Made by a program: the position numbers and the translations under genes. A stretch of 32,000 bases of DNA from Planctopirus limnophila DSM 3776 (lineage in GTDB: Bacteria > Planctomycetota > Planctomycetia > Planctomycetales > Planctomycetaceae): positions 2,070,001 to 2,102,000 of the forward strand of contig NC_014148.1 in NCBI RefSeq assembly GCF_000092105.1. Direction: 5' to 3'. A model generated the notes under the pieces. That model saw only the letters and a program-made list of their open reading frames with translations. It was not told the DNA's origin and did no database searches. This document shows, in pieces, positions 1-13,959 of this stretch (its first letter is position 1; the number at the start of each line of letters is the position of its first letter).

Positions 1-304
1 AGGTGGAGCCGTTATCGCTTTGCTTAAACCCTTCCCAGTTGCCAGTGGGGTCGAGGTTCCAATCCTGCTTGAACGCGGTGGATGCCAGAGCGGTTTGGGT
101 GCCGTTGAGTGTGCCGCGGTGGGCGGTCTTTAACCGCTGGAGGCCGTCGTAGGTGTAGAGCCAGTCGTATTGGGCACTGTGGGCGGTGGCGATAGGGTTC
201 TTCCGCCAGATGCGGTTCGAGGCGCGGTCGTAGCCGTACTTGATGCGGTCGAGATCGGTCCCCGCTTTGTGCCAGCGGTTGTCCTTCACGCGGCCAAAGC
301 GATC
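1..304 (-). pseudogene. rhs core fragment (third rhs copy). It runs off the left edge and its 5' part is deleted relative to the 1055..3328 paralog
   Basis: nt 1-304 align collinearly with 2548-2857 (14 mismatches in the first 100 nt by hand count, one 6-nt indel). The minus-strand translation is YD/RHS-repeat sequence: FGRVKDNRWHKAGTDLDRIKYGYDRASNRIWRKNPIATAHSAQYDWLYTYDGLQRLKTAHRGTLNGTQTALASTAFKQDWNLDPTGNWEGFKQSDNGST. Homology then jumps to about 3258-3418, so about 400 nt of the paralog are missing. The conserved start position (GTG 358-360) is out of frame with the core and hits a stop after 24 codons. Confidence 0.6.
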
Positions 305-310
305 GAGGCG

Positions 311-348
311 GAAAAAGCCACTGCTGGAGGATTAGCCCCAGCAGTGGG
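311..348 (-). terminator. terminator-like hairpin inside the rhs junction element (copy A)
   Basis: 10-bp stem CCACTGCTGG (318-327) / CCAGCAGTGG (338-347) with a 10-nt loop. On the minus strand the stem is followed by CTTTTTCC. It lies 3' of the 523..1080 ORF and is positionally homologous to 3274-3303. Confidence 0.5.
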
Positions 349-413
349 AAAAAACTTCACGTCAATTGTCAAAGAGCAGAGAGATCAGGATGGAGGAGGC
401 AAAACTTCTCGTG

Positions 414-463
414 CCGCTGGCACACAGGTCGCTCGATAACGAACAACCTGTGCCACCGAGCGG
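414..463 (-). repeat. conserved imperfect hairpin, rhs junction element copy A
   Basis: GGCACACAGGT (419-429) and ACCTGTGCC (446-454) form a stem with a 2-nt AC bulge. A basal helix CCGCT/AGCGG extends it. The loop contains CGCTCG. The same core occurs at 3375-3409, 6753-6788 and 7312-7349. Confidence 0.7.
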
Positions 464-522
464 GTGGAAAATGTGGTGGTAGGCAACTGAGAAACAAAGG
501 CAGGATGTAGCCTGCACTACGG

Positions 523-1080
523 TTAATCTCTCTCACCAATTTTGCCGTGTTTGTTAACTTCCAAAACGAATCTGCTTTCTCTTTCGGTTGTAATTTCGGC
601 TATCGCACGCTGAGCGTATGAAACAAGAGTTTCATGCGATACTCCCGATCGACTGGCAGAATTCCATCTGTTTTCTATTTCCGCGGAAGCATCATTGAAG
701 CCTCTTTCATAAAACTCAAACATCACGCCGTTGGATTGACCCGAATGAAACAAAAGTCGTTCGGTATTTCCTGCAATCTTGTTTTCAAGCGACGCTTGCC
801 ATCCATAGAAGTGGCCTTCATACCAGTCAGATTTTCCAAGACGAAGAATTGGTGGCTTCTGTCCATCTTTGTCGCTATTTGATACGATACTAGTTGGAGG
901 GATGTCTGAGGGAGCTGTTAAATCTTGCGGATAGGAGAAAATGATTTCTCGGTCTTCTCCTCGTGTCTGTCTGCCGCTTGACGTGTCGCATCCTGTCTGT
1001 ATGAACGCTGTCAGCGCAAACGCCATTGAAAGACATCGGCCATATTTACAAAAACTATTTACTCTTGTTTGCATTCGCAT
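523..1080 (-). CDS. putative exported lipoprotein, candidate immunity protein for the 1055..3328 Rhs tip
   Basis: The ORF lies directly after the rhs stop. From the internal Met at 1080 the N-terminus reads MRMQTRVNSFCKYGRCLSMAFALTAFIQTGC: a basic n-region, a hydrophobic core and a Cys, which is lipobox-like though not canonical at position -3. The region is AT-rich like the toxin tip. The start overlaps the rhs 3' end by 26 nt. No family was recognised. Confidence 0.55.
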   Translation of the reverse strand: MRMQTRVNSFCKYGRCLSMAFALTAFIQTGCDTSSGRQTRGEDREIIFSYPQDLTAPSDIPPTSIVSNSDKDGQKPPILRLGKSDWYEGHFYGWQASLENKIAGNTERLLFHSGQSNGVMFEFYERGFNDASAEIENRWNSASRSGVSHETLVSYAQRAIAEITTERESRFVLEVNKHGKIGERD

Positions 1081-3328
1081 CTCCCCATTCGGCTTGGCAA
1101 ACTGCACAGTAGGCAATCTCATTGAATCGCTTGTTATCTTCGTAAGATTTGATCTTCTCCTTAAACTCTTTGTCATTCTTCCTGAGAACTACCATTGGGT
1201 TAACGTTTCCAAATCCATTGTTTGCGTGATACCAAAGTGCATCATCAGGGTTGAAGTAGAAAAAGTCAAAATTGAAGTAGTCTCCAGCTGATGCAGGGGG
1301 CCTTGAGAGAATAGCGTTCCAGGTTTTCTTGCCATTCAGCGAGAATTTTCCATTTTTTTCATTAATTGCAATTTCACGAGCCCCTCCTGGAGTGCCGTTG
1401 TTCCAGACAATGGCTATCAATCTCGCTTCAGTTCTTGTTCCGTAAATGTTTGTTCCAAATCCTTTGCAACATTCTTTGGTTTCGTTCATGTCCTTCATTC
1501 GCAGTCGCGCCTGTTCAGGATCACGGTAGCAATGTTGTAAATCTGGCAAAAACCCGTCTCGGAGCTCGAATCCGCTTGGGTTGAGTGTGTATCCGGGGAA
1601 GCCGAGCATGCAGAAAGTTACGCCAATGCAGCCGGCTTGTGCAGTATTTATAAAGTGGCCCTTTGGGATTGATGTTTTCACAAGTTGAAAGTTTTTATTC
1701 TGCCATTGAGATAGGGTATCCCATGGGAGCAGATTTTCTGACCATTCGTCCCACCATTGATCAACTGTCAAAACATCAAGACCATAAGGGTCAATAGTGT
1801 TCAATTGATTGACACGCTCATAGAGGGAGAGTCCGTCGACGTATCTCAATGGATCTCTTCGTGTCCATTTCCCTAACTTGAAATGCAAACATCGGTAGCG
1901 GGAATCATAAATCTTTGTGTGCAGATCGTAATGTGAGCCTCCGTATGCGACGATCCATTTGTTTGTGTTAGCTGAAGATGAGAAAATTAGATCTAGTTGT
2001 TGAACTTCCCCATACGGATCATACTCAAACCGTTCTTGTACCTCGCCCGCTTCATCCACAATGGTGGTAACATTCCAATTGGCGTCCTGGAGTGCGTAGA
2101 GACGTTCGTCGAGTGTCGTGGTGGTCGTCCGGTCTCTGAGGAGGCAGTCGTCGATGTATCTCAGGCCCCAGATGTGGTGCTGGCTGAGGGTGGAACTGGA
2201 ATCTGTGCGTTCTTCGATGTTCTGCCAACCGTCCGTGAAGTAGGCGTGAGTCGTTTCATCCAGCACTCCGGAGTCGTAGTTTTTGACAACCACTCGGAAG
2301 TTTCTGGCGTCGTACTGGTACTCGGCGACCGTTTCCAGCGTGCTGGAGACTTCTTCCTCCAGTTTGACCAACCGGTTCCAGGCGTCGTAGGTGGCGGTGT
2401 AGGCTTCGTCCATCTGCTTGGGTTTGGGGATGGTGGTCATGTTGCCGACGGCGTTGTAGGCCGGGTCGGCCCAGGCACTGCCCACCGTGTTGGTGATGTC
2501 GGTGATTTCGTTCACCGGGTTAGCCGTGCGTTCTTGTTCCATGCTCCAGGTGGAGCCGTTGTCACTCTGCTTAAATCCTTCCCAGTTGCCGGTGGGGTCG
2601 AGGTTCCAGTCCTGTTTGAAGGCCGTGCTGGTGAGAGCGGTTTGGGTGTTGTTGAGGGTGCCACGGTTGGCGGTCTTGAGGCGTTGGAGGCCGTCGTAGG
2701 TGTAGAGCCAGTCGTATTCGGCACTGTTGGCCGTGGCGACGGGGTTCTTCCGCCAGATGCGGTTCGAGGCTCGGTCGTAGCCGTACTGGATGCGGGAGAG
2801 GTCAGCGTTGGTCGAGGTGTTGTACCAGCGGGAGTCCTTCACCCGGCCAAAGCGATCCAGGCCGGTGTAGATGTCGCCCGTGTCGGGATCGTTGGAAACG
2901 CCTGCCAGCGTGTACCGCAGGTTCGGTTGGGGGCTGGTTTGCTGGATGACGCCTGCCAGGCCGAGGAATTCGTAATCGACCAGGTGGGTCAGGGAGAAAT
3001 CGTCGTCGATGATGGAGCCGATGCGGCTGAGGGCATCGTTGATTTCGTTGGTGGTGCCGTAGCCGTAGGTGAGTTCCCGACCGTTGGGGTAAGTGAGGCT
3101 CAATGGGCGCACTGTGTTGGTGCTGCCGTTGGCATAACCTCGCTGCACGCTGGGTGTGGTGCCGGTATTCACGGTGCCGTCATGCTCCTGGAACGTCTGG
3201 ATCGACTGCCCAAAATCATTGTACGTGAACTGCACCTGATTAACAGCATTTCCTGAGGTGGCGGCATCGAAAACCCCTGCCGGAGAGTGATCCCCGGCAG
3301 GGGGAGTAAACTTCATGTCGATTGTCAA
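1055..3328 (-). CDS. RHS repeat protein with a variable C-terminal toxin tip and no N-terminal domain
   Basis: YD-type repeats run throughout (YGYDRASNRIW, YTYDGLQRL, YQYDARNFRVV). RHS core end: YDSRYRCLHFKLGKWTRRDPLRYVDGLSLYERVNQLNTIDPYGL. A 240-aa unrelated tip follows. The start is uncertain (TTG 3328 or ATG 3316), and codons 8-20 coincide with a terminator-like hairpin. Confidence 0.9.
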   Translation of the reverse strand: MTIDMKFTPPAGDHSPAGVFDAATSGNAVNQVQFTYNDFGQSIQTFQEHDGTVNTGTTPSVQRGYANGSTNTVRPLSLTYPNGRELTYGYGTTNEINDALSRIGSIIDDDFSLTHLVDYEFLGLAGVIQQTSPQPNLRYTLAGVSNDPDTGDIYTGLDRFGRVKDSRWYNTSTNADLSRIQYGYDRASNRIWRKNPVATANSAEYDWLYTYDGLQRLKTANRGTLNNTQTALTSTAFKQDWNLDPTGNWEGFKQSDNGSTWSMEQERTANPVNEITDITNTVGSAWADPAYNAVGNMTTIPKPKQMDEAYTATYDAWNRLVKLEEEVSSTLETVAEYQYDARNFRVVVKNYDSGVLDETTHAYFTDGWQNIEERTDSSSTLSQHHIWGLRYIDDCLLRDRTTTTTLDERLYALQDANWNVTTIVDEAGEVQERFEYDPYGEVQQLDLIFSSSANTNKWIVAYGGSHYDLHTKIYDSRYRCLHFKLGKWTRRDPLRYVDGLSLYERVNQLNTIDPYGLDVLTVDQWWDEWSENLLPWDTLSQWQNKNFQLVKTSIPKGHFINTAQAGCIGVTFCMLGFPGYTLNPSGFELRDGFLPDLQHCYRDPEQARLRMKDMNETKECCKGFGTNIYGTRTEARLIAIVWNNGTPGGAREIAINEKNGKFSLNGKKTWNAILSRPPASAGDYFNFDFFYFNPDDALWYHANNGFGNVNPMVVLRKNDKEFKEKIKSYEDNKRFNEIAYCAVCQAEWGDANANKSK
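1058..1777 (-). other. variable C-terminal (toxin) domain of the 1055..3328 Rhs protein
   Basis: It begins right after DPYGL (the Leu codon is at 1778-1780). It is visibly AT-richer than the core. It contains NTAQAGCIGVTFCM and, further on, DALWYHANNGFGN. No family was recognised by eye. Confidence 0.7.
3268..3304 (-). terminator. terminator-like hairpin inside the rhs junction element (copy B)
   Basis: Stem CCCCTGCCGG (3274-3283) / CCGGCAGGGG (3294-3303) with a 10-nt loop. On the minus strand it is followed by TTTTCGAT. Relative to copy A, two stem positions differ, and both arms changed so that pairing is preserved. Confidence 0.5.
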
Positions 3329-3360
3329 AGAGCAGAACGATCAAGATAGAGTAGCTAAAA

Positions 3361-3418
3361 CCACATGTGTTGTTGGCACACAGGTCGCTCGTAGACTACA
3401 ACCTGTGCCACTATGTGG
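3361..3418 (-). repeat. conserved imperfect hairpin, rhs junction element copy B
   Basis: GGCACACAGGT (3375-3385) / ACCTGTGCC (3401-3409) with a CGCTCG loop start. The basal helix CCACAT (3361-3366) / ATGTGG (3413-3418) differs in sequence from copy A but is still complementary. Confidence 0.7.
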
Positions 3419-3468
3419 ATGTTTGTGTGGATATTGACGCAATCTCAAATAGTAAGACAACAAAGTGA

Positions 3469-3732
3469 TTACATGCAAAACCAAACCGTTGTTGATATAT
3501 TCCACAGAATCCAAAAAACAATCTGCGTACTTGATGTTTTAAGAAACCATTTGCTGGTTGTTTGTGCGTAATACAAACATGTTATTATATATGCTACTTG
3601 AGGAAGTAAGAGGATCAACTTGAGTTGCAGTGCGTATAGCACTGATTGTGTTGACGGAGATGGACGATTTGCTGTAATTACTGTCGCAGCATCAATGAGA
3701 AACGTCTGGCAAATCGTCCATATAAGCAGCAT
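3469..3732 (-). CDS. small hydrophobic protein (87 aa), possible membrane immunity protein; could be spurious
   Basis: ATG start 39 nt after the stop of 3772..4149, on the same strand. There are three hydrophobic stretches: LLIWTICQTFLIDAATVI, LILLLPQVAYIITCLYYA and QIVFWILWNISTTVWFCM. It lies in the most AT-rich part of the island and ends 57 nt before hairpin B. Confidence 0.3.
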   Translation of the reverse strand: MLLIWTICQTFLIDAATVITANRPSPSTQSVLYALQLKLILLLPQVAYIITCLYYAQTTSKWFLKTSSTQIVFWILWNISTTVWFCM

Positions 3733-3771
3733 AGATTCACTTCTTTCATTAATGCATGGTTGCGAATATGT

Positions 3772-4149
3772 CTATTCAGTGATGTTAACGCCACCGTATA
3801 ATTGAAACCATAGCTCGGGGCAGGGTGGTCGATGTTTCTTAAGACCAAAACTAGAGAAATTAAATATATTCCAGCTCATGTTTCCTGTTTCCATCGTCGG
3901 GACGCCTAATCCAGTCTGTCCACAATGTCCGTTGCGTCCATATCGCTCGTACCATGATGTGGCTGTAATACAGTTGTTAATACCCGTGTAGTATGGGTAT
4001 GGGAATTCGAAATTCTCCACAGCGTTTTGATTTTCCATCCATGCTTTAATGAGAAGCATATCATCCAATTCATCAGAAGCATACTCACCAAAGTTGATGT
4101 AGGGGGGGTCTTCCTTCTCCGCTTTGAATGCCCCAAGTGTTATTGCCAA
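3772..4149 (-). CDS. ORF overlapping the 3' end of rhs 4085..6757: either a frame-shifted continuation of the toxin tip or a separate immunity ORF
   Basis: It lies in the +1 frame relative to the rhs. That frame is open from 4221, but the only starts are TTG 4149 or ATG 4059. A C7 run (minus strand, 4102-4108) sits in the overlap, and 7->6 would fuse the two frames. The product has Cys/His and aromatic-rich sequence (NGHCGQTG, FPYPYYTG). Confidence 0.4.
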   Translation of the reverse strand: MAITLGAFKAEKEDPPYINFGEYASDELDDMLLIKAWMENQNAVENFEFPYPYYTGINNCITATSWYERYGRNGHCGQTGLGVPTMETGNMSWNIFNFSSFGLKKHRPPCPELWFQLYGGVNITE

Positions 4150-6757
4150 ACAGTGGGGCTTGAAAATGTAGTTCAGTGTATTGTTTGTTGGGAATGCCTT
4201 TTGTAAGCATGCCGTGATCTACGTTTAGGCGAATAAATTCATGGAGCTGAAAGCAGGTTTGCCTTCCGGGAGCATTTGGGTCAACGCGGATTATTCTGTT
4301 GAGGTCACACTGGGGTGTCGTTGGTGTGTGAACTTTTACACGCGGTTTAATAGGTTCGGTCTTTAATGTGTAATGATCAGCGTACCCTGTGCACCATATT
4401 CCGTACATAGTCCAGTCAAAATATGGTTCTTTCAATCCGCTAGGGTCTTTTCTCGAGGTAGAGGTATTTCGTGTATATCGCAGGAGTGAGGTGTCGCCTC
4501 CGCTAAACTCAATCGGATCTTCGCTTACGAATCTTCCCACTTCGGCGTCGTACCATCTGGCGCGGTACCAGTGGAGGCCCGTGTCTTCGTCGTATTCTCT
4601 CGCCGTGAAGGTATAATGCGGGAGGGGTTGGCCTGCTGTGCTGCCCGTGATTTGGCCGAAGGTGCTGTAGGTGAGGTGGTTGGTGACGGTGGTGGTACCC
4701 GCGTTGTGTTCGGCCACGTCGCGGATGGTGCCCAGGTGGTCGGCGAGGAGCCACTTGATGTTGCCAATGTCGTCTTCTTCGGCTAATGGCATGTCGATGC
4801 CGGGGCCGTGGAGGAATCGGGTGAGCAGGTCGCCGCTGTCATCGTGGATGAACACGCAGTCACTGGTGGTGCCTTTCGTGGTGGGGTCGAACGTGTAGTG
4901 GCGGATGTCGTTCCACGAGTTGTTGGCAGTCGAGTCCAGCTTGCGGGTAATGCGCTGGTTATGGATGTCGTAGGTGTAGGCCACTCGTTTCTGGGGCGTA
5001 TCGAGTGAGTCGCGGTGTTCGACTTGGGTCAGCCGGTTGCGGTGATCCCATGAATAGACCGTATAGTCGCCGGTGGCGACTTCCGTTTTACGGATGCGGT
5101 TGCCTTCGTCGTCGTAGAGGTATTCGTAGGTGCCGTCTTCCAGAAGCTGGTTGTTGGTGCCGGTGATGTAGCCGGTGTTCGTGCGGTTGCCGGTGAGGTC
5201 GTAGCTGTAGGCTTCATCGGGGGTCGTGGGGTGATCGGCGGCGGTGAGTTGGGCAATGGCGTCGTAGTCGTAAGCTGAGGTACCATCCAGAGTTTCATGG
5301 CTGGAGAGGCGGCGGTCGGCATCGTAGGTGTAGTAGTGCTGGGCCAGGATGGTGGCCGATTGAGCGTGCTTCAACTGCACGATCCGGCCATAATCGTCGA
5401 ACGTGAACGCGCTGTCGGCCAGTGAGGTGCCGCCTGAAACTTGTTCAAAGCGGCTGATGGCATGGGGGCGGTTCAGTACGTCGTAGCCGAACTCGACACG
5501 CTTTTCGGTGACCGAGTTACCGCCCACACTTCCCTGCTGTGTGATCTGCGTGGGCTGCCCCAACGCATTGTGGAGGTAGCTGTTGGTGAAATCGTCGCTG
5601 CTTTCGACTTGTGCCGCCAGCGAGAGGCGATTGCCAGCGCGGTTCCAGTCAGCCGTCAAGAGAACGTGGGGAACATCGTCGGTGCCGTCGTTATCGACCG
5701 TGGCGATGTGGCCGAAAAGGTCGTAAGTGTAGGCATACGCGGAGACATCGTCGGAAATCGACTGCAAGCGTCCTTCGGCATCGTAAGTTCGGCTGACGGT
5801 GTTCACAGTGCTGCCGCCGGTCTTCCAGAGTTCGGTGTCGGGTCGCCCGAGATCATCATGAACAAGTTGAATGACTCGTCCATTGCGATCGGTGCGTGTC
5901 TCTAAGTGACCAGCCGTGTTGTACGCGAAGAATCGCGATTTCCCCAAGGAATTTTCTTCTTCAATCACCCGGCCCACGCCATCGTAGCGCCAGGTGGTCG
6001 TGTTTTCTTCGGCATCAGTCAGCGAGAGTTGATGACCGGCGATATTGTAAGCCAGCGTTGTGACGGCGTCTCTTGCATCAGTGATGGTGAGGACGCGACC
6101 CAAGCCGTCGTAGGTCATCGACTCCGTTAATGCGAGGTTCGCCGGTGTGCGCTGAAGCACGTTTCCACTTTGATCGTACCAGACTTCATCGACCATCGCC
6201 GCACCCACGCTGCCGGTGGTGGGGTTGACGGCGTAGCGGCGGGATTGGTAGGGGCGGCCGAGGGGGTCGTAATCGGTTTCGATGCGGCTTAAGAGTGTGC
6301 CGGTGGGGGAGCCGTCGTAGCGTTCGCTGCGGATGAGTTGGCCGCGGAAGTCGTAGGTTTCTTTCTGGCAGAAGTTTTCTTCGCCCTGGGTGACGAGGCG
6401 GCGGCCACGGTAATCGTAGCTATACGTTGTTTCGCGCGTGGTGCTGCTATCGACGTGTTGCGTCGAGAGAATCGGGCGGCCCGCGATGTCGTATTCGGCT
6501 GCGGAGACGAGGACCGTATCATTTGACGGCCCCTCAGTGAGGGGTTGGGCCGCGGCGGGATCTGAATGGCTCGCAGAGAATGTCTCCCGCGAGCGGAAGG
6601 CCGACAAGCTGTCAATGGCGGAAGCGCCTGTGGAGCCTTGCTTAAGGAAGATTCCTGAAACATACCGCTCCGCTGCCCCACTGCCAGTGGTCGAGTCGTA
6701 TTCAGTAGTCTGGAAAAGTCCGGAGTTCGTTCGCAGGACAATGTCGCAGGGTGGCAC
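4085..6757 (-). CDS. RHS repeat protein with a variable C-terminal toxin tip; appears N-terminally truncated
   Basis: Dense YD repeats (YSYDYRGRRL, YDPLGRPYQS, MTYDGLGRVL, WRYDGVGRVI, YTYDADRRL, YLYDDEGNRI). Core end: YRARWYDAEVGRFVSEDPIEFSGGDTSLLRYTRNTSTSRKDPSGL. An AT-rich tip of 115 aa follows (4088..4432). The GTG start at 6757 comes six codons after an in-frame TAG, lies inside hairpin C, and reads straight into repeat sequence. Confidence 0.9.
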   Translation of the reverse strand: MPPCDIVLRTNSGLFQTTEYDSTTGSGAAERYVSGIFLKQGSTGASAIDSLSAFRSRETFSASHSDPAAAQPLTEGPSNDTVLVSAAEYDIAGRPILSTQHVDSSTTRETTYSYDYRGRRLVTQGEENFCQKETYDFRGQLIRSERYDGSPTGTLLSRIETDYDPLGRPYQSRRYAVNPTTGSVGAAMVDEVWYDQSGNVLQRTPANLALTESMTYDGLGRVLTITDARDAVTTLAYNIAGHQLSLTDAEENTTTWRYDGVGRVIEEENSLGKSRFFAYNTAGHLETRTDRNGRVIQLVHDDLGRPDTELWKTGGSTVNTVSRTYDAEGRLQSISDDVSAYAYTYDLFGHIATVDNDGTDDVPHVLLTADWNRAGNRLSLAAQVESSDDFTNSYLHNALGQPTQITQQGSVGGNSVTEKRVEFGYDVLNRPHAISRFEQVSGGTSLADSAFTFDDYGRIVQLKHAQSATILAQHYYTYDADRRLSSHETLDGTSAYDYDAIAQLTAADHPTTPDEAYSYDLTGNRTNTGYITGTNNQLLEDGTYEYLYDDEGNRIRKTEVATGDYTVYSWDHRNRLTQVEHRDSLDTPQKRVAYTYDIHNQRITRKLDSTANNSWNDIRHYTFDPTTKGTTSDCVFIHDDSGDLLTRFLHGPGIDMPLAEEDDIGNIKWLLADHLGTIRDVAEHNAGTTTVTNHLTYSTFGQITGSTAGQPLPHYTFTAREYDEDTGLHWYRARWYDAEVGRFVSEDPIEFSGGDTSLLRYTRNTSTSRKDPSGLKEPYFDWTMYGIWCTGYADHYTLKTEPIKPRVKVHTPTTPQCDLNRIIRVDPNAPGRQTCFQLHEFIRLNVDHGMLTKGIPNKQYTELHFQAPLFGNNTWGIQSGEGRPPLHQLW

Positions 6758-6788
6758 AGGCTGCTTGTCCGCGAGCTACCTGTGTGCC
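6753..6788 (+). repeat. junction hairpin copy C (loop orientation flipped)
   Basis: GGCACAGG (6753-6760) / ACCTGTGTGCC (6778-6788). The loop ctgcttgtccgcgagct carries GCGAGC next to the right arm, which is the reverse orientation of the CGCTCG seen next to the left arm in copies A, B and D. Confidence 0.6.
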
Positions 6789-6937
6789 GAAGGCAAAAGA
6801 AGTTTGGCTGCTGCAAGCACTGCAATACGAGTCTCTGATGATCTCAGGTGACTCAAGCAGATTTGCGGCTCTGCCAGTCCCCTCCTGTGGCGAAGCCACC
6901 CAAGTAGAAATCATAATCTCAATCGGGGCCACCTGCG
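6778..6937. repeat. repeated intergenic unit X (about 155-160 nt)
   Basis: Collinear with 7339-7491. Shared blocks: ACCTGTGTGCC..AGGCAAAAGA, GACTCAaGCAG, CCTCcTGTGG, and the distal block CCACCcaaGTAGAAATCAtaATcTCAAtCGGGGCCACCTGCG (6896-6937). Confidence 0.7.
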
Positions 6938-6989
6938 GCATAAGCACCTTGGAAGACATTAGAGTTTACCTTGGGTATTCTCCAAGCAA

Positions 6990-7235
6990 TCATTCAATCG
7001 TGTAGGTAATTCCGCGTGCGGTCAATTCATCACAAATAGATCTTACAATTCGATCATGGTCTGCTTTAGTAAAGACATCACTCTCATGAGGTGGAAGCCA
7101 TCCTGTTAACGAAGATTCAAATATATCGAAATCTGTCTGATTGCCATTAACACGCATTAATGCTTCTACAGAAATTTTGGCTTGCCGCCCACCTTCTTCG
7201 AAAGTGATAGCCCCGGTTGTCATGTGGACAATCAT
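6990..7235 (-). CDS. small protein (81 aa; 77 aa from the second Met), orphan immunity-like
   Basis: Clean ORF in an AT-rich segment. Sequence: MTTGAITFEEGGRQAKISVEALMRVNGNQTDFDIFESSLTGWLPPHESDVFTKADHDRIVRSICDELTARGITYTIE. Its size, position in an rhs island and the W-PP...I...I...L...GI pattern recall small alpha+beta polymorphic-toxin immunity proteins. This is from memory only and was not searched. Confidence 0.55.
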   Translation of the reverse strand: MIVHMTTGAITFEEGGRQAKISVEALMRVNGNQTDFDIFESSLTGWLPPHESDVFTKADHDRIVRSICDELTARGITYTIE

Positions 7236-7301
7236 TTTAAGTTCTCACTAGTTACACATTGCAATTGTTTGCCACGAATTTACTTCATGATGGAATAGCA
7301 C

Positions 7302-7360
7302 CTTTGCCTATGGCACACATGTCGCTCGTCTGCAAGTCACCTGTGTGCCATAGGCAAAAG
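7302..7360 (-). repeat. junction hairpin copy D (longest, near-perfect palindrome)
   Basis: CTTTGCCTATGGCACACATGT (7302-7322) pairs with ACCTGTGTGCCATAGGCAAAAG (7339-7360). The 16-nt loop is cgctcgtctgcaagtc. Confidence 0.75.
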
Positions 7361-7491
7361 ATGCATTGTTTCCAAAACTCTCGTGGGCACCTTAAAAGGT
7401 TTCATGTTCGGCTGACTCAGGCAGGCTGCTCATCCTCTGGTCGTTTCACCACCCCGGTAGAAATCAGAATTTCAACCGGGGCCACCCTGCG
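7339..7491. repeat. repeated intergenic unit Y
   Basis: Collinear with unit X. Distal block: CCACCCCGGTAGAAATCAGAATTTCAACCGGGGCCACCCTGCG (7449-7491), with internal dyad CCGGTAGAAAT/ATTTCAACCGG. Confidence 0.7.
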
Positions 7492-7607
7492 AATTCAGCA
7501 CGAGTTTAGAAATGCTTCACGGGACTCGGCAATCGCATCGGAAAACAAGGTTTCATTAATTGGTCCTAAAAGAATGACGAGAATCATTGAGTCCAGCCCC
7601 CTTTGTC

Positions 7608-7925
7608 TTACCCGATGGGTGACTCTTGCTTCGTTGGATTGTCAAATGGAAAGAGCGAACGAAATGCATAAGTTTGGACGCTAGGAAGTGCGTGATGCGA
7701 CAACTCTCTAAGACGCCGAATGAATGCAACAGTGTTGTATCTCTCTGCCGATATTTCGCTCGTAATTAATGTTCCAATATTGACGAGATCATCATTATCA
7801 GACAGCAACAGCCGCAGCAACTCTTCTACATCCCTGCTTTCACGAAACTGATCCACCAAACGTGTCAATCCATCGACTCCATCGGCTCCGCTGTTGACGA
7901 TTTCTAATACTTCATCTTCTATCAT
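7608..7925 (-). CDS. small helical-repeat protein (105 aa from Met at 7925), orphan immunity-like
   Basis: AT-rich ORF. Sequence: MIEDEVLEIVNSGADGVDGLTRLVDQFRESRDVEELLRLLLSDNDDLVNIGTLITSEI..., acidic and HEAT/ARM-like in pattern. No family was recognised with certainty. Confidence 0.55.
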   Translation of the reverse strand: MIEDEVLEIVNSGADGVDGLTRLVDQFRESRDVEELLRLLLSDNDDLVNIGTLITSEISAERYNTVAFIRRLRELSHHALPSVQTYAFRSLFPFDNPTKQESPIG

Positions 7926-8029
7926 TGTGTATCTTCTCCAGTGCACTTTTAAGTTTCTGAAGGAATCCCCTCTCCTATGCTATACGTCTTTCATGAAAGG
8001 TGCGTTCGAGTTCGGTTCCCTTTCAAGTT

Positions 8030-8072
8030 CACAGGGTGGCCCCGGTTGAAATCCTGATTTCGACCGAGGTGG
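8030..8072. repeat. third, inverted copy of the distal block of units X/Y
   Basis: CACAGGGTGGCCCCGGTTGAAATCCTGATTTCGACCGAGGTGG is the reverse complement of the consensus CCACC...GT.GAAATCA..ATTTCAACCGGGGCCACCCTG.G. Confidence 0.7.
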
Positions 8073-8210
8073 CTTTGCAGGGTGAACCAAATTGTGCGTC
8101 AAAGACAGTCCAGAGCTGCAAGCATGGCACAGAGTTGCCTGCATTTCACACTGAAAGTTTAAATTTCATGGATGCGTATGAGTCCATTCGATTCAGACCC
8201 ATGTTAACTG

Positions 8211-9410
8211 CTACCAGCAGCGGCCGCGGAGTTTTTTGAGGGTTTCTTCCAACAAGCGGAGATCCTGGCGGTCGTTGTAGAGGTGGCAGGAGATGCGAAG
8301 GTGGCGGGTGTTGTTCCAGAACATGACGGGGGCCTCGATACGGGCTGTTTCCCAGAGGCCAACCTGAAGCGGGTCGGAGTCGGCCTTCGGGAGTGGCAAC
8401 TCGCTGGGAGGCAAGGGGACCGCGACCATCGTGCCACACCACGCCATGTCCGCTGGAGCGATCGCTTTGGTGCCGAAGAGGTCTTCCAGCATGGCTCGGG
8501 CCTCGCAGGCAAGGGCGAAACCCCGCTTGCGGAAGTGATCGAGGCCAAACGATTCCATGAACTGGATCGCTGTCGGCACCGCGAGGTAGTGGTCTGGGTC
8601 GCGAGTGCCTTGCCAGCGAAGTTCATCCTGCCAGGCTGCGGCACGTCCTGCGACAGGGCGGCCCCAACTCAGCATGGGAGCACGGACCTTCGCTTGCCAT
8701 TCCGGTGCGACGTAAAGGAAGCCAGTTCCTAAGGGAGCACAGAGCCACTTGTGCAGGCTTGCACAATAAAAGGCCGCTCCTAGTTCTCCCAGTGAAAAGT
8801 CCTGCATGGCAATGGCATGCGGGCCATCAATGACGACGGGAATCTCCCGCTGCTTGAATTCGGCCATCAGCTCGCGAACGGGGAAAACGGTCGCGGTTGC
8901 GGATGTCACATGACTGAGAATAACGAGCCGAGTGCGCGGTGTGACGGCGTGGAGCAGGGGCTCGATAACATCTGAGGGATCGTGAAATGGCCTCAGGTTA
9001 GACGTCACGAGTTTGGCACCGGCGACTGTACAGGCTCGTTCCCAGATGCGGCGGACGGCTCCATATTCGTGGTCGTTGAACAGGACTTCGTCGCCGGGCC
9101 TCAGTTCGAACGAGGCGGCGACAACGTTCATGGCGGTGGTAGCGTTTTCGATAAACAGCAGGTCATTGGGAGAGCATTTCAGGAAACTGGCGAGAGCGGC
9201 TTTCGCCTGCTCGACTTCATGATCCAGTTCGCGGACGAAGCCATTCATAGGATTGGCGGCAAGGCGTTGCGACCATTGCTGCCGGGCCTCCTGGACGGGA
9301 AGAGGAGTCGGGCCAAAAGAACCGTGATTGAGGTAAGTCACACCTTCGGCAATCCTCCAGAAGTTCCTTTTGATGTGAGTGGCATCGTTGAGTTGCAGCA
9401 GATCGGTCAT
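8211..9410 (-). CDS. class V aminotransferase-fold PLP-dependent enzyme (isopenicillin-N-epimerase / cysteine-desulfurase-like)
   Basis: Motifs: LNHGSFGPTP, NATTAMNVVA, ILSHVTSATA, VIDGPHA, and the PLP-lysine context ASLHKWLCAPLGTGFLYV. Start placed at MTDLLQLND (9410). The upstream 51 codons of the tracked ORF look non-coding. Confidence 0.8.
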   Translation of the reverse strand: MTDLLQLNDATHIKRNFWRIAEGVTYLNHGSFGPTPLPVQEARQQWSQRLAANPMNGFVRELDHEVEQAKAALASFLKCSPNDLLFIENATTAMNVVAASFELRPGDEVLFNDHEYGAVRRIWERACTVAGAKLVTSNLRPFHDPSDVIEPLLHAVTPRTRLVILSHVTSATATVFPVRELMAEFKQREIPVVIDGPHAIAMQDFSLGELGAAFYCASLHKWLCAPLGTGFLYVAPEWQAKVRAPMLSWGRPVAGRAAAWQDELRWQGTRDPDHYLAVPTAIQFMESFGLDHFRKRGFALACEARAMLEDLFGTKAIAPADMAWCGTMVAVPLPPSELPLPKADSDPLQVGLWETARIEAPVMFWNNTRHLRISCHLYNDRQDLRLLEETLKKLRGRCW

Positions 9411-9633
9411 TGTGAATCGACTACGGGGACTGGAGTGTTGAGAATTCGTTCGTGGAGGCAACCAGAATTGTAATCGATGTTTTGCGAAGAAGGTGGTCTC
9501 CCCCTTTGCAAAACGACCTGCTTCCAGCCACAATGCGACGAATTCACATGCGTTGATCTTCAATGGGTCAATGAACGTGATTCTGATCGAACAGCATTGA
9601 GTCTGGCAAAAGTCGTGAAACGGGAGAATTCCA

Positions 9634-10857
9634 GTGGCAAGTGTAAAGACGTTGGCCAGTGCCGCGTTGACCGAAGGTCGTGGTGTATTCCGATTGTCCC
9701 CGACGTGGGTTCCGCGCTCGTTCCTGCAGCCAGGCCGTCGGCTGAAACTGCATCCAGCAGACTATTACGCCCTGGGAACACATCGCGGCGGGATTGATGA
9801 GCGCTGGTTTGGCTCGACGACAGAAGCTGCCAATGAAGGACGTGCTCACGATGAAGGCCTGAGCTACTGCGTGGCTGGCGGGGAAAAATTCCTGCTGCGG
9901 GATGCAGTCGAAGAACTCGGCGCGGAGATCGTGGGCGAGCACATCTGGTCGAAGTATAAGAAATGGCCGGTCTACTCGAAGTTCTTCGACAACATGGGGC
10001 CTATTCCTCACCACATGCACCAGAACGCCGAGCAGGCCAAGCTGGTCGGTCAGGAAGGGAAGCCCGAAAGTTATTACTTCCCGCCGCAGCTCAACAATGT
10101 GGGGAATAATTTCCCCTATACGTTCATGGGTTTTGAACCCGGGACGACCAAAGAGCAAGTGGTGGCCTGCCTCGATCGCTGGAATGACGGCGATAACGGC
10201 ATCCTCGATCTGTCGAAGGCTTACCGGTTGAAGGTTGGCACAGGCTGGTTGATTCCGCCATGCATTCTGCATGCTCCGGGCTCACTGCTGACTTACGAAC
10301 CACAGTGGGGCAGCGATGTCTTCGGGATGTACCAGTCCATGGTGGAAGGCCGGGCAGTGCCACGTTCACTGCTGACGAAGGACTTCCCGGAAGAGAAGCA
10401 TGGCGATAATCAGTATCTTGTCGACGCGCTCGACTGGGAAGGGAACGTCAATCCGAACTTCAAGGATAGCCACTATCTGGAACCCATCGTGGCTTCGGGG
10501 AGTGACAAAGAAGGCTTTATTGATCGCTGGATCGTTTATGGTCGCATCAAGGGAGCCCAGGATTTCACCGCCAAGGAACTGACCATTCAACCCGGCACCA
10601 AAGTCACTATCAAGGACGGCGGCGCCTACGGCTGGATCACGGTGCAGGGCGAAGGGTCAGTCAATGGCCTGAAGCTGCAGACACCATCGATGATTCGTTT
10701 TGGTCAAATGACGATGGACGAAGTCTTTGTCACCGCCAAGGCTGCTAAAGAAGGTGTAACCTTCGAGAATACAGGGACGGATCCACTGGTCGGTCTGCGT
10801 TATTTTGGCCCGGAAGCTCAGCCCGAAGCTCCAGAGATCGGTGCCTGGAAGAAGTAA
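9634..10857 (+). CDS. cupin-fold protein, class I phosphomannose-isomerase-like (putative sugar isomerase)
   Basis: GTG start with GGGAGA 8 nt upstream. Metal-site-like PIPHHMHQNAEQ and GTGWLIPPCILHAPGSLLTYEPQWGSDV resemble the PMI HxH and HA.G...E.Q..SD motifs. A terminator follows. Confidence 0.55.
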   Translation: MASVKTLASAALTEGRGVFRLSPTWVPRSFLQPGRRLKLHPADYYALGTHRGGIDERWFGSTTEAANEGRAHDEGLSYCVAGGEKFLLRDAVEELGAEIVGEHIWSKYKKWPVYSKFFDNMGPIPHHMHQNAEQAKLVGQEGKPESYYFPPQLNNVGNNFPYTFMGFEPGTTKEQVVACLDRWNDGDNGILDLSKAYRLKVGTGWLIPPCILHAPGSLLTYEPQWGSDVFGMYQSMVEGRAVPRSLLTKDFPEEKHGDNQYLVDALDWEGNVNPNFKDSHYLEPIVASGSDKEGFIDRWIVYGRIKGAQDFTAKELTIQPGTKVTIKDGGAYGWITVQGEGSVNGLKLQTPSMIRFGQMTMDEVFVTAKAAKEGVTFENTGTDPLVGLRYFGPEAQPEAPEIGAWKK

Positions 10858-10887
10858 CGACTATCACGAAGCAAGTGATGCTCTTGG

Positions 10888-10920
10888 GCGGGGGATTGAC
10901 AACAATCCCCCGCATTTTTT
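10888..10920 (+). terminator. rho-independent terminator
   Basis: GCGGGGGATT (10888-10897) / AATCCCCCGC (10904-10913), followed by ATTTTTT. Confidence 0.8.
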
Positions 10921-11012
10921 GATATACTTCTGCGGTGATGGTCTTTGATTTCATCAATCGAGATGAAGAAGTCGCCTGTGATCTGGCAACGAATTTTTCC
11001 TGGAGATTCGCC

Positions 11013-11612
11013 ATGTCGATTGCTCCGATGCCTCCTGTCACACTGGATGAATTTCTGCGGAGTGAAGCGGAAGCTCCCGAGGGTGTGACGTTAGAACTGA
11101 TCGATGGCAAATTGGTGGAGAGGCCATCGATGACGACACGAGGAAGATTGCATGCATTCGTGATGTCGCTTCTCGTCTATGAACTTGTGAGATGGAGCCA
11201 GTCTTTCCATCAAAAACCTGTTGAGATTGGCAGTGGCGAAGCGAGATGCCGTCTGACGATGGAGAATGATACAATTGTTGGTGTTGATGCAGGTGTGTGG
11301 ATTGGTGAACAATATGCGTCACCATCCAACGACCCGCCACTTTACGAAGGCCCACCTGTTGTCGCCGCTGAGATTCTTTCGCCGAGCGATAAAAATGAGT
11401 ATGTCGATGAAAAAATCGCTGCTTATCTTGCCGCTGGTGTTCATCAGGTCTGGATCCTCGATCCGATGTGGCGAACCGTAACGGTCTATCGCCCAGACTC
11501 AAAACCAGCTTTCTATGCCGAAGACGATGTCCTTAATGCGGCTCCCGATTTGCCCGGATTTTCACTGCCTGTTTCCCAGTTTTTCAGCAAGTATGTCAAA
11601 CGACCTGTCTGA
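11013..11612 (+). CDS. Uma2 family (DUF820) putative endonuclease
   Basis: Family-typical pattern: ELIDGKLVERPSMTTRGRLHAFV, VDAGVW, PPVVAAEILSPSD, YLAAGVHQVWILDP..RTVTVYR, PDLPGFSLPVSQFF. ATG at 11013 with GGAGA 7 nt upstream. Confidence 0.8.
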   Translation: MSIAPMPPVTLDEFLRSEAEAPEGVTLELIDGKLVERPSMTTRGRLHAFVMSLLVYELVRWSQSFHQKPVEIGSGEARCRLTMENDTIVGVDAGVWIGEQYASPSNDPPLYEGPPVVAAEILSPSDKNEYVDEKIAAYLAAGVHQVWILDPMWRTVTVYRPDSKPAFYAEDDVLNAAPDLPGFSLPVSQFFSKYVKRPV

Positions 11613-11657
11613 AAATTCCCTTTCAATATCCTTGCCATTTCCTGAGGAAATTCTTCC

Positions 11658-12686
11658 ATGACGCACTCGCTGCCCAAGCTTCATAACGCCATGTGGCCCG
11701 GCCTCGTTGGTAAAGAACCAGGAACAGACCATCCACCCATCAGCCTCGAAAAAATGCTCGAAATGACGGGGAAGGCACATGTTAATGGTGTGACTTACGA
11801 TGGCGTTGATCTGTTCCTGTTTCACCCACACACTGATCCTGATGCAAGTGAAACGGCCATTCGCAACATGGCGGATCTCATAGCTGCCCACGGTCTCAAG
11901 GTGGGTTCCCTGGTGGCACCGGTCTGGCCGGGAACGGTCGGCGATTCGGCCATGGGTGATGAAGCCGCTCGTAAGAAGTTCGTGCTGGCTGTCGAAAAGG
12001 CTTGCCGCATTGGCAAGATTCTGCGTGAGCACGGCGTGCGCGAATATGGCGTCATCCGCATCGATTCTGCGACTGGCACTTCAACATGGCATGATGACCC
12101 CAAAGGGAACACCGCCAAGATCGCCAAGACGTTTCAGGAAGCGGCCAGTGTGGCGGCCAGCTACAACGAGCGCCTGGCAGCCGAAGGCGAGATCTGCTGG
12201 GCGGGGATGCACTCCTGGAAAGATATGGTTGATCTGCTGGAAGCTGTTGATCGTCCGAAGACCGTCGGTTTCCAGGCCGATCTGGCACATACCTACCTCT
12301 ACCTGCTCGGCTACAACGCGGAAGAGCATGCCCTGCTGAAGCCTGGTTACTCAGATGAAGAGTTCTGGGCTGCCTACAAAATCATGACTGACGCACTGCG
12401 TCCATGGACCATCGATTTCCACGTCGCTCAGAACGATGGTTCTGTCCATGGTACTGGCAGCCATGACAAGACCGGTCGCCACTGCCCGGCAGATGATCCG
12501 AATGGCAAGCTGGATATTGTGAAGTGTGCTGGCTATTGGCTGCAGGGAGCCAAAGAACGTGGTATCGAGCATATCTGTTGGGATGGCTGCATGTTCCCGA
12601 ACGCCACTCTGGAAAATCAGCAGACCTGGAACACCATTCTCAAGACAATGATCGATGTCCGCGAGGCTGCTGGCTGGGACAAATAG
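11658..12686 (+). CDS. sugar phosphate isomerase/epimerase (xylose-isomerase-like TIM barrel)
   Basis: N-terminus [13 protein letters not shown], then [49 protein letters not shown]. This pattern is typical of planctomycetal TIM-barrel isomerase-like proteins. SD GAGGAAA. Confidence 0.8.
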
Positions 12687-12737
12687 GCCTTGTCGTCATC
12701 TCCCGCTTGAACTCCCTCTCTATTGAACTCATACGAC

Positions 12738-12778
12738 AAAAGGCAGTGTCTTCTCATGAAGCACTGCCTTTTGTTTTT
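12738..12778 (+). terminator. rho-independent terminator
   Basis: AAAGGCAGTG (12738-12747) / CACTGCCTTT (12762-12771), followed by TGTTTTT. Confidence 0.8.
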
Positions 12779-12949
12779 ACCTGAACACACTTCTATAGAA
12801 CAATATTATTACTGAATCCATGCTTTCAATAACGTCTCTAGCTACTGGCCAGTGCGGGCCTCTGATGGCGCCCCAGAATGCGATATTGCTTCTGATCGTG
12901 ATGTCGCCGGAGCAGCTTCAGCGACTAGTGTAGAAGTGGTGTTGTCGGG

Positions 12950-13867
12950 CTACGTTGACGAACGAGATTCGGTAGATGATACAGGTTCTTGTGAAACAGG
13001 AACTGCTGGCAATTCGTTGACATCAAAGACTTGAACATTGACTTCCATGTGATTGAAGGCATTGGATGGGCCTGACCAGTAGCCGGCCAGTGGCGAGGCT
13101 TTGTCCTGCTCACGAGAAACACCGACCGAGACATGTTCAGCTCCAGCGAGCTTATTATTTGTCGGATCAAAGCCACGCCATCCCGCACCCGGAAGATAGA
13201 TTTCGGTCCAGGCATGTGTTGAGCCATGTTGCTCGGCGCCCATCTGGACATAACCCGTCACAAATCGTGCCGCAAGCCCCCAGTGCCGGGCGGCTTCCAT
13301 CATCAGGACAGCGTAATCTCGACAGGAACCTGTTCCTAAGCGAATCGTTTCACACGGAAGCTGAACGCCCGGTTCTTCCCGATGCATATACTGAAACGAC
13401 TCATAAATGCGTGTATTCAGAGTGGTTAGTAAATCGGCGGTATTGAGGAGTTGTCCCGGTTGATACAGTGTAGAAAGCCATTCATGAATCACCGCGCCGT
13501 CAGCAGGATAGCTGGGTAACCGGAATGGGAACAATTCGACCTGCTCATCAGCACTGTACTGAAATGGATAGGACTGTCCGATGGGATCAATCGAACAACT
13601 CAGGCCATAATCATCATAGAGATCAACTTCGACTTCGCTATAGAAACGAAGTTTACTGGCAGGTTCAAGAAAGTTAATAATTGCTATGCTGTTGCCGTAG
13701 ATATCGCGAACCCAGCGAACTTCTGCAGCCGGCTCGATTTCCAACCTGGAAGAAATAATATGCAGGTCATGACCCTCGCGGGGCCTGACCATGGCACGAT
13801 GCGGGCCGAGCGTTACTGGTTCGTTGTAGTGATATTCGGTGTTATGAATAATCCGGATGCGTTTCAA
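12950..13867 (-). CDS. transglutaminase-family protein (N-terminal bacterial TGase-like region plus TGase core)
   Basis: MKRIRIIHNTEYHYNEPV start (TTG, GAGGA 6 nt upstream). Core Cys/His/Asp context: GTGSCRDYAVLMMEAARHWGLAARFVTGY ... HAWTEIYLPGAGWRGFDPTN. Confidence 0.9.
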   Translation of the reverse strand: MKRIRIIHNTEYHYNEPVTLGPHRAMVRPREGHDLHIISSRLEIEPAAEVRWVRDIYGNSIAIINFLEPASKLRFYSEVEVDLYDDYGLSCSIDPIGQSYPFQYSADEQVELFPFRLPSYPADGAVIHEWLSTLYQPGQLLNTADLLTTLNTRIYESFQYMHREEPGVQLPCETIRLGTGSCRDYAVLMMEAARHWGLAARFVTGYVQMGAEQHGSTHAWTEIYLPGAGWRGFDPTNNKLAGAEHVSVGVSREQDKASPLAGYWSGPSNAFNHMEVNVQVFDVNELPAVPVSQEPVSSTESRSST

Positions 13868-13959
13868 TTGATCCTCGGATGGTTTCTGCAGAACTCACTT
13901 TTGCGAACCATTAATGATGTTTCGCGAGAAGTCTTTGGTATATGAATTGAAGACCTGCC

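Follow-up and report, generated by a model that had tools for sequence, protein, structure and literature searches.

Why should a planctomycete chromosome hold several rhs toxin genes, each without its beginning and none beside a complete copy? This question arises from a 32,000-nucleotide (nt) stretch of Planctopirus limnophila DSM 3776, hereafter the window, whose positions serve as coordinates throughout; the genes concerned occupy positions 1-8100, which we call the island. With moderate confidence, we read it as an island that grew by accretion and stands alone, made up of silent orphan toxin/immunity cassettes together with orphan immunity genes and acting as an immunity bank and recombination reservoir. 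Arrays of toxin cassettes are already known; this one has an unusual stand-alone form and does not amount to a new secretion system. What sets it apart from known arrays is that it stands alone, mixes core families and is bounded by hairpins.

Three 5'-truncated rhs open reading frames (ORFs) lie head-to-tail on the minus strand, as a preliminary description of this DNA had reported: Rhs890 (4085..6757; 890 amino acids, aa), Rhs757 (1055..3328; 757 aa) and an open frame at 1..304. The last is the start of Plim_1600 (607 aa), which runs off the window. It is identical to the N-terminus of that protein (P0194), enters the core at ...LDRFGRVKD and has 87% nt identity to positions 2548-2803. The profile searches proposed as a check in that description recovered RHS repeats and TIGR03696 in both longer ORFs. 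Rhs890 matched RHS_repeat (PF05593, 3e-17), YD_repeat_2x and Rhs_assc_core (TIGR03696, 7e-17, aa 697-775), with TIGR01643 at 2.3e-15 among the YD-repeat results, while Rhs757 matched TIGR03696 (5.5e-9, aa 436-517) and RHS_repeat (PF05593, 2.4e-5). Both cores had also been correctly described as ending in the canonical motif and passing into unrelated tips. The Rhs890 core runs to DPSGL (aa 771-775, nt 4433), leaving a 115-aa tip (4085-4432); that of Rhs757, of which 517 residues are kept, runs to DPYGL (aa 513-517, nt 1778) and is followed by a 240-aa tip (1055-1777). Plim_1600 retains 356 core residues and has its own DPLGL motif and tip. The reported switch from GC-rich core to AT-rich tip and small ORFs agrees with GC content at third codon positions (GC3), which was 0.72-0.82 in cores, 0.32-0.46 in tips and small ORFs, and 0.56-0.66 in the housekeeping genes of the window. 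The island comprises five units in the same orientation: ORF112; Imm74; Rhs890 with its tip and small ORFs; Rhs757 with its tip and a lipoprotein gene; and the Plim_1600 fragment with its tip. It begins with two immunity-only units, ORF112 being presumed to be one.

Comparison with relatives bears out the claim that these RHS-core ORFs lack their N-termini. Across the best 120 relatives of each protein, N-terminal extent spanned -280 to +685 aa (Rhs890) and -162 to +550 aa (Rhs757), with about 40% of the latter set beginning within 30 aa of the Rhs757 start. The longest relatives carried hundreds more YD-repeat residues N-terminally, some together with FG-GAP/VCBS domains. At the 5' end of Rhs890, an in-frame TAG can be read six codons ahead of the GTG at 6757, as had been pointed out. 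Two independent short-read assemblies of the same strain reproduced positions 6339-7483 at 100% identity. The abruptness of the Rhs890 5' end thus does not stem from assembly, and sequencing error at this junction was ruled out. In an AlphaFold (AF2) model of Rhs890 built on a 40-sequence alignment (predicted template modelling score, pTM, 0.71), only residues 84-747 folded, into a beta-cocoon, with residues 1-83 and the tip left unstructured. The cocoon matched Rhs shells at E values of 1e-31 to 1e-38, the best rigid overlay being RhsP (8h8a; template modelling score, TM, 0.60; root-mean-square deviation 4.1 Å; 678 columns against a 964-residue shell). Solved Rhs shells of type VI secretion systems (T6SS) comprise about 1020-1080 modelled residues and TcC half-shells about 660-675. 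With about 665 aa, the predicted folded part of Rhs890 is about two thirds the size of solved Rhs shells.

A feature missed by the preliminary description is a set of boundary hairpins that delimit every cassette. Each cassette joint bears a conserved imperfect palindrome from one of two related families. Family A reads GGTGGCACAGGTTGCTCG-TCTT-CGAGCGACCTGTGTGCC, with a 2-nt bulge on one arm, and family B reads GGTGGCCCCGGTTGAAAT-TCTG-ATTTCTACCGGGGTGG; the half-site GGTGGCNCNGGTTG and the 4-nt centre are common to both. Two direct copies of A, at 399..462 and 3357..3412 on the minus strand, are each followed by a non-coding leader (~314-398 and 3304-3356), the whole units folding at z = -4.6 and z = -3.6, respectively. 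The copy at 6745..6808 is inverted (inverted-repeat pairs I1/I4; motif on the plus strand at 6750-6763), and both the GTG "start" of Rhs890 and its in-frame TAG lie within it. The fourth, at 7294..7361, is a near-perfect palindrome with 20-nt arms (-43.5 kcal/mol, z = -7.2). Family B likewise occurs in both orientations. Copy 1 (8035..8072, plus strand), inverted relative to the other two, forms the outer edge of the island (-25.6 kcal/mol, z = -3.8; minus strand, -15.0), followed by copy 2 (7449..7486, minus strand) and a degenerate copy 3 recovered by repeat and motif scans (6896..6933, minus strand). Three short-read contigs of the same strain (L001, L002 and L003) end inside copy 2, at 7463-7483; B-like sequence may thus be repetitive enough to interrupt assembly. 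With at most one mismatch, the GGTGGCNCNGGTTG half-site gave six matches against 0.22 expected, all in 1-8100 and none in 8100-32000; the core patterns of A (five matches against 0.05 expected) and B (three against 0.02) were also confined to 1-8100. Given these hairpins and Imm74, a full-length immunity gene described below, the picture is therefore one of a cassette island and not of rhs ORFs plus junk.

Before Rhs757 and Plim_1600, hairpin A is followed by a non-coding leader of about 60 nt and then by a second, terminator-like hairpin (hairpin 2). Its two copies, directly 5' of the Rhs757 core (3274..3303, minus strand; 13 pairs, 10 of them G-C, then TTTTCG; the best site in 1-8400) and of Plim_1600 (318..347, minus strand; 12-pair stem, then CTTTTT), are the two strongest terminator-like sites of the region. 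The roughly 20 leading codons of ORF 1055..3328 fall on the former, where a terminator-like hairpin had already been noted. We aligned six A-leader-hairpin units from three genomes. Leader indels were not multiples of three. Hairpin 2 pairing was 98.6% across the six copies; at two positions both partners of the pair had changed (A-U became C-G in three copies, and C-G became U-A in one), and several G·U pairs are possible on the sense strand only. What is annotated as the start of the Rhs757 protein is thus hairpin sequence and no true N-terminus. A search of Rfam with positions 1-9000 (E<=1) gave only spurious microRNA-hairpin matches on hairpin A. A sigma-70 promoter scan gave two weak matches, fewer than in shuffles and none in the leaders, and a TTGACA in the leader is not conserved among copies. 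In most copies, GTGCCAGCGGCAC directly follows hairpin A (alignment A2 66-78; for example 389-401, and L008 12958-12970). It is a small palindrome overlapping the 3' arm of A, makes an alternative stem possible, and is lacking in copy U4.

The usual account of orphan cassettes is that their tips were displaced from a full-length gene next door. No such main rhs gene is present at the four loci concerned here, which come from three Planctopirus-like assemblies (P. limnophila, P. hydrillae and the related VFQR). Upstream of the truncated ORFs in the window lie Imm74, ORF112 and then housekeeping genes, with no full-length rhs. The island's outer edge adjoins a class-V aminotransferase gene, and 8100-32000 further encodes a Uma2 nuclease, a resistance-nodulation-division (RND) efflux pump, a sigma factor, ribosomal protein S1, FtsH and similar functions, with no secretion, PAAR/VgrG or recombinase genes. 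The earlier statement that signal peptide, PAAR, VgrG, secretion genes and an upstream full-length rhs are all missing thus stands. Three protein searches returned no full-length Planctopirus rhs of either core family among the best 120 matches, and the missing N-terminal part of the family, used as query, found no Planctopirus protein among the best matches. The two cores, rightly said not to be close paralogs, are 22% identical (E 0.015) and so are not leftovers of one main gene. Classical serial displacement at one gene is ruled out as their origin by the same identity.

Truncated cassettes bounded by A in the same way recur at other loci, in P. hydrillae and in VFQR, immediately after housekeeping genes. 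Scans with exact A-type patterns, which were strict (the first needed a gap of at least 10 nt and would miss U4), matched one genome locus and two metagenome loci, all in Planctopirus-like DNA. In P. hydrillae, the locus L008 reads abhydrolase, A, leader, an Rhs757 orthologue, the same lipoprotein ORF, A, leader, a Plim_1600-like fragment, a small ORF and gltX. It is collinear with window positions 3300-135 at 91% identity, and the upstream chromosomal context differs. The same abhydrolase locus is present in VFQR (L009); at both, the first A of the array resembles a hybrid site, its outer arm being degenerate and its inner arm canonical. A second VFQR locus, L010, holds a single cassette between two direct A copies: deacetylase, A, leader, hairpin 2, Rhs (P0122), a 171-aa ORF, A and then non-rhs DNA. 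No full-length rhs lies upstream at L008, L009 or L010. In another P. hydrillae locus, L007, A directly follows the last immunity-like ORF of a further truncated rhs. Within about 79 kb of Planctopirus DNA, A and B occur only at toxin/immunity cassette boundaries and have no copies in ordinary intergenic DNA; none lies outside cassettes in the 24 kb of housekeeping DNA of the window or in L007-L010.

Sliding identity between the window and L008 revealed discrete zones. The GC-rich core (3286-1987) is 75-95% identical (~89%), the segment 1987-487, which covers the last ~70 core codons, the tip and the immunity gene, 96-100%, and hairpin A with its leader 62-82%. The first breakpoint (~1987) is where GC-rich gives way to AT-rich sequence, 210 nt ahead of DPYGL, and the second lies just before hairpin A. 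Because the module is 96-100% identical against ~89% for the core, tip-plus-immunity modules are exchanged horizontally between species, each as one block, in keeping with the preliminary view of tips and downstream ORFs as exchangeable modules. P. hydrillae cassette 2 is 93.5% identical to Plim_2663, a fourth P. limnophila cassette whose translated N-terminus shows the same leader-to-core junction, and 63% identical to its positional counterpart Plim_1600. From these identities and the zoned identity of L008, the cassettes are mosaics that swap segments between loci and species. Nei-Gojobori comparison with P. hydrillae gave a synonymous divergence (dS) of 0.40 and a nonsynonymous-to-synonymous ratio (dN/dS) of 0.096 for the Rhs757 core, 0.08 and 0.11 for its tip, and 0.06 and 0.15 for the lipoprotein immunity gene. 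The P. hydrillae copies also show decay. A TGG>TGA nonsense mutation in the Rhs757-type toxin (L008 12089-12148) removes its last 59 residues, and a frameshift splits the second core (L008 12996-14666) into two ORFs. The lipoprotein immunity ORF is intact.

With terminator-like hairpins ahead, no start, an incomplete shell and decay in the sister species, the truncated toxins are, as judged from sequence, most likely silent. The terminator-like hairpin would insulate them and keep them normally unexpressed. The immunity genes would be what the cell uses, against Rhs toxins of competitors, and are probably the selected cargo. The conserved core and hairpin A probably provide two homology anchors through which new tip/immunity modules would enter and cassettes would move; alternatively, hairpin A may act as a hairpin-specific recombination site. 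Of the possibilities raised in the preliminary description, that of silent cassettes recombining with rhs loci elsewhere is thus retained in part. Silence fits better, given the non-coding leader, hairpin 2 before two cores and the P. hydrillae nonsense mutation and frameshift. Recombination with rhs elsewhere in this genome is not supported as stated, since no full-length Planctopirus rhs was among the best matches and exchange was seen among truncated cassettes and between species.

Several observations weigh against this reading of a silent cassette bank. At dS 0.40, the Rhs757 truncated core has the low dN/dS given above and no stop in 517 codons, which is not what drift of a silent fragment in situ would leave; either functional alleles have converted it repeatedly, or the protein is truly under selection. 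The leader-to-core junction is common to four cassettes whose cores differ by up to 45%, and in the alignments this junction looks like maintained architecture. This purifying signal and the shared junction form the main difficulty, and either conversion from functional alleles outside these genomes or a function of the TcC-sized protein can explain them. Hairpin 2 is absent before Rhs890. As A also occurs in both orientations, a terminator role is not general, and a good T run is missing from some hairpin 2 copies. Among the downstream ORFs, no recognised immunity family other than Imm74 was found. Finally, a distant full-length rhs or a dedicated recombinase elsewhere in the P. limnophila genome is possible.

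The purifying signal bears on the idea that the truncated Rhs proteins are themselves functional, made from an internal start after the leader and acting either as TcC-like half-shells that dock on a partner or as intracellular toxin/antitoxin-like modules, with hairpin A and the terminator-like hairpin as a regulatory 5' untranslated region or attenuator. We consider this fairly unlikely. In its favour, the ORFs of 890, 757 and 607 aa are intact, the core has a dN/dS of 0.096 and no stops, the leader/core junction is kept in cassettes at only 55% core identity, and about 40% of the best 120 relatives start within 30 aa of Rhs757. The folded part of Rhs890 (~665 aa) has the size of TcC (660-675 residues modelled in 4igl_B, 6l7i_G and 5kis_B), the candidate immunity ORF and the toxin stop overlap, as they would in a functioning operon, and stand-alone truncated rhs occurs in other Planctomycetaceae too (L012). 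There is also precedent in Salmonella, where orphan rhs are reported to act as toxin/antitoxin-like modules (PMC7043789). However, mosaic conversion can also yield a low dN/dS, and the cassettes are indeed mosaic. The leader does not code for protein and closes with a strong stem and Ts directly before the core, the Plim_1600 core has only 356 residues, and one nonsense mutation and one frameshift are present in the P. hydrillae copies. The window and the L008 flanks contain no gene for a TcB-like or other partner. Nor is there a conserved split point: the N- and C-ends of 118 relatives are scattered, many with out-of-frame tails, and with no conserved break a split-gene arrangement of the TcB/TcC kind was rejected. 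The related suggestion that short shells are delivered by a route not yet characterised gained no positive support, though a dN/dS of ~0.1 leaves room for it.

The hairpins invite a different explanation, namely that they are sites of a dedicated DNA mobilisation system, integron-like or based on an HUH/Y1 transposase associated with repetitive extragenic palindromes (REP), that would capture toxin/immunity cassettes and move them, its enzyme being encoded elsewhere in the genome. The A and B palindromes share the GGTGGCNCNGGTTG half-site and 4-nt centre and stand only at cassette boundaries in either orientation; A has a 2-nt bulge on one arm, the first A of the array is hybrid-looking at L008 and L009, and at L010 a single cassette sits between two direct A copies amid housekeeping genes. 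Unrelated cassette types (two Rhs families and immunity-only units) are found together in the island, and the array occupies different chromosomal contexts in two species. Homologous recombination between 50-150 nt repeats can give rise to the same structures, and no integrase, transposase or REP-associated tyrosine transposase (RAYT) lies within 24 kb in the window or 10 kb at L008 and L010. Rfam gave no attC-like or other match, and exact A patterns are restricted to Planctopirus-like DNA (one genome and two metagenome matches). A RAYT does stand beside a stand-alone rhs in another Planctomycetaceae genome, L012 (NF047646, 2.6e-40), but this is one co-occurrence in a different genus. We regard such a system as unlikely. 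The broader proposition that A and B are sites of a RAYT- or integron-like system assembling unrelated cassettes in Planctomycetes, that TcC-sized truncated Rhs is a selected functional form, or both, also strikes us as improbable. At the other extreme, the island may be decaying debris of once full-length rhs genes, its toxins and immunity genes without present function. The three cassettes are indeed truncated at different points, no fold is predicted for residues 1-83 of Rhs890, and ORF125, which lacks homologues, overlaps its toxin ORF at a C7 run. The P. hydrillae copies are inactivated, and Blastopirellula marina has comparable fragmented arrays with an insertion sequence (IS) insertion. 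Debris would not, however, be expected to keep long intact ORFs, dN/dS of 0.1-0.15 in core, tip and immunity gene, boundary elements conserved with compensatory changes, a full-length Imm74, and tip/immunity modules recently exchanged between species. We therefore hold this to be very unlikely and return to the silent cassette bank as the preferred reading.

The immunity units and small ORFs differ in how far they can be assigned. The two small AT-rich ORFs reported upstream of the rhs genes are present, and the aminotransferase follows them as the next, housekeeping, gene. One of them is not anonymous: the ORF at 6990..7235 (minus strand, 81 aa) is a full-length Imm74 (PF15603, 2.4e-32). No toxin cognate to it is present in the window. 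Imm74 is described as the primary immunity protein of Tox-ARC toxins and as occurring in polyimmunity loci (Zhang 2012, PMC3482391). The other, ORF112 (7608..7946, minus strand; 112 aa, or 105 aa from the ATG at 7925), is AT-rich, lies between inverted B copies and has no Pfam or NCBIfam match; because its composition and flanking repeats are the same as those of the Imm74 unit, we read it as a presumed orphan immunity cassette. In Pfam and NCBIfam searches at relaxed thresholds, the tips and small ORFs gave nothing besides Imm74. Downstream of Rhs890, ORF125 (3772..4149, minus strand, 125 aa) overlaps the end of the toxin ORF by 65 nt and is either an immunity candidate or the out-of-frame rest of the tip. 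A C7 run lies at ~4100-4108, where the Rhs890 frame stops and ORF125 continues, and possibly marks either a frameshift in the tip or a genuine ORF overlap. An exhaustive search of 1.84 billion representatives returned no true homologue of ORF125. ORF87 (3469..3732, minus strand, 87 aa, GC3 0.36), which is hydrophobic and gave no family in Pfam/NCBIfam profile searches, is a candidate membrane immunity protein for the Rhs890 tip.

The candidate immunity gene for the Rhs757 toxin encodes a predicted lipoprotein (523..1080, minus strand; 185 aa; …LTAFIQTGC) of no Pfam family. Its ATG overlaps the end of the toxin ORF, and it shares 97-100% nt identity with the P. hydrillae copy. An AF2 model of the 240-aa Rhs757 tip (1055-1792), of low confidence (predicted local distance difference test 60, pTM 0.68), resembles microbial transglutaminases (5m6q; E 3.6e-6, TM 0.50), and nine homologous tips have an invariant Cys in GCxGxTxC. 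As a lead only, this tip may thus be a Cys-dependent deamidase or cross-linking toxin.

Just outside the island, a conserved 407-aa ORF without a Pfam family (9634..10857, plus strand) neighbours a Uma2-family putative restriction endonuclease (10935..11612, plus strand). A contig from another sample (Logan L005, SRR27476756) is 97% identical to positions 8415-15508 and ends before the island; this housekeeping flank shows that there is a second P. limnophila-like strain. Other Planctomycetes, too, commonly have truncated rhs ORFs, either alone or in clusters. In L012 (Planctomycetaceae metagenome-assembled genome JAWKUD010000008), a lone rhs fragment lies between a kinase gene and a glycosyltransferase gene. 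The RAYT of this contig (12975..13637, plus strand; Pfam negative) directly follows stand-alone truncated rhs P0128 with its small AT-rich ORFs and the very short remnant of a second rhs core (12626-12941). In L011 (Blastopirellula marina PUHZ01000023), rhs fragments and small ORFs, including one WD40 ORF, form an array of 20 kb in which a DDE_Tnp_1 transposase (8617..9990, plus strand) lies immediately upstream of truncated rhs P0036, whose truncation may be due to IS insertion.

The Planctomycetes phylum is not known to have a T6SS. The island yields a concrete, testable model of how such a phylum assembles its immunity repertoires and toxin reservoirs, and the sharp question it leaves is why a beheaded Rhs core is under purifying selection. 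Should the hairpins prove to be sites for a recombinase or RAYT, the island would represent a new system for capturing cassettes; otherwise, it is a tidy case of homology-anchored exchange.

Set beside known systems, the truncated proteins have the YD/RHS repeats, the core ending in DPxGL and the variable tip of Rhs toxins. The complete shell, N-terminal plug and trafficking domain are lacking: relatives reach 500-685 aa further at the N-terminus, and signal peptide, PAAR and VgrG are all missing. They resemble the TcC component of ABC toxins (4igl_B, 6l7i_G, 5kis_B) in their ~660-700 folded Rhs residues without an N-terminal trafficking domain, and in an aspartyl-protease/DPxGL end followed by a hypervariable toxin tip; TcC, too, is often encoded at stand-alone loci. 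In contrast to TcC, which needs TcB to close its shell, they have no TcB-like partner nearby and no conserved split point.

As for the boundaries, A and B are like REP and REPIN elements in being extragenic imperfect palindromes of 38-60 nt, 3' of genes, in either orientation and in related families. They appear to differ from REP/REPIN-RAYT systems in that they occur at cassette boundaries only (~79 kb of Planctopirus DNA), with no RAYT seen near them. As for integrons, bulged imperfect palindromes do stand at the boundaries; inspection revealed no GTTRRRY/RYYYAAC box of attC, Rfam gave no match, and no intI or recombinase gene lies in 8100-32000 or the L008/L010 flanks. With no intI there and no attC signature on inspection, the island is probably not an integron. 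Silent cassettes of Neisseria pilS, mafB and tpsA are promoter-less and N-terminus-less and have a conserved 3' repeat as second homology arm. The island shares the N-terminus-less copies and the 3' repeat that would serve as such an arm, whereas no expression locus was found and exchange was seen only among cassettes and between species.

Imm74 and ORF112, in one orientation, without cognate toxins and presumably protective, are like polyimmunity and orphan-immunity clusters (PMC3482391, PMC5361080, PMC12247911). By Zhang's definition, polyimmunity loci have one orientation and are never interrupted by toxin cassettes (PMC3482391). Here rhs toxin cassettes directly follow Imm74 and ORF112, so the island, which mixes toxin and immunity cassettes and has no associated recombinase, is not a polyimmunity locus in that sense. 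There are further parallels with the orphan rhs-CT/rhsI modules of enterobacteria, fragments without translation or export signals whose expression needs recombination (PMC3967940) and which lie downstream of a full-length main rhs with a near-identical shared core, for example 522 bp at 95% (Poole 2011, PMC3150448; Koskiniemi 2014, PMC3967940). Like them, the cassettes of P. limnophila consist of a 5'-truncated rhs with some core, DPxGL, a polymorphic tip and then a small gene, lack translation and export signals, and contain an AT-rich, horizontally exchanged tip/immunity block, its immunity role here being predicted. Unlike them, they have no homologous main gene at this locus or at three sister loci; they keep 1.1-2.3 kb of core, set two unrelated core families side by side and bear hairpins at every boundary.

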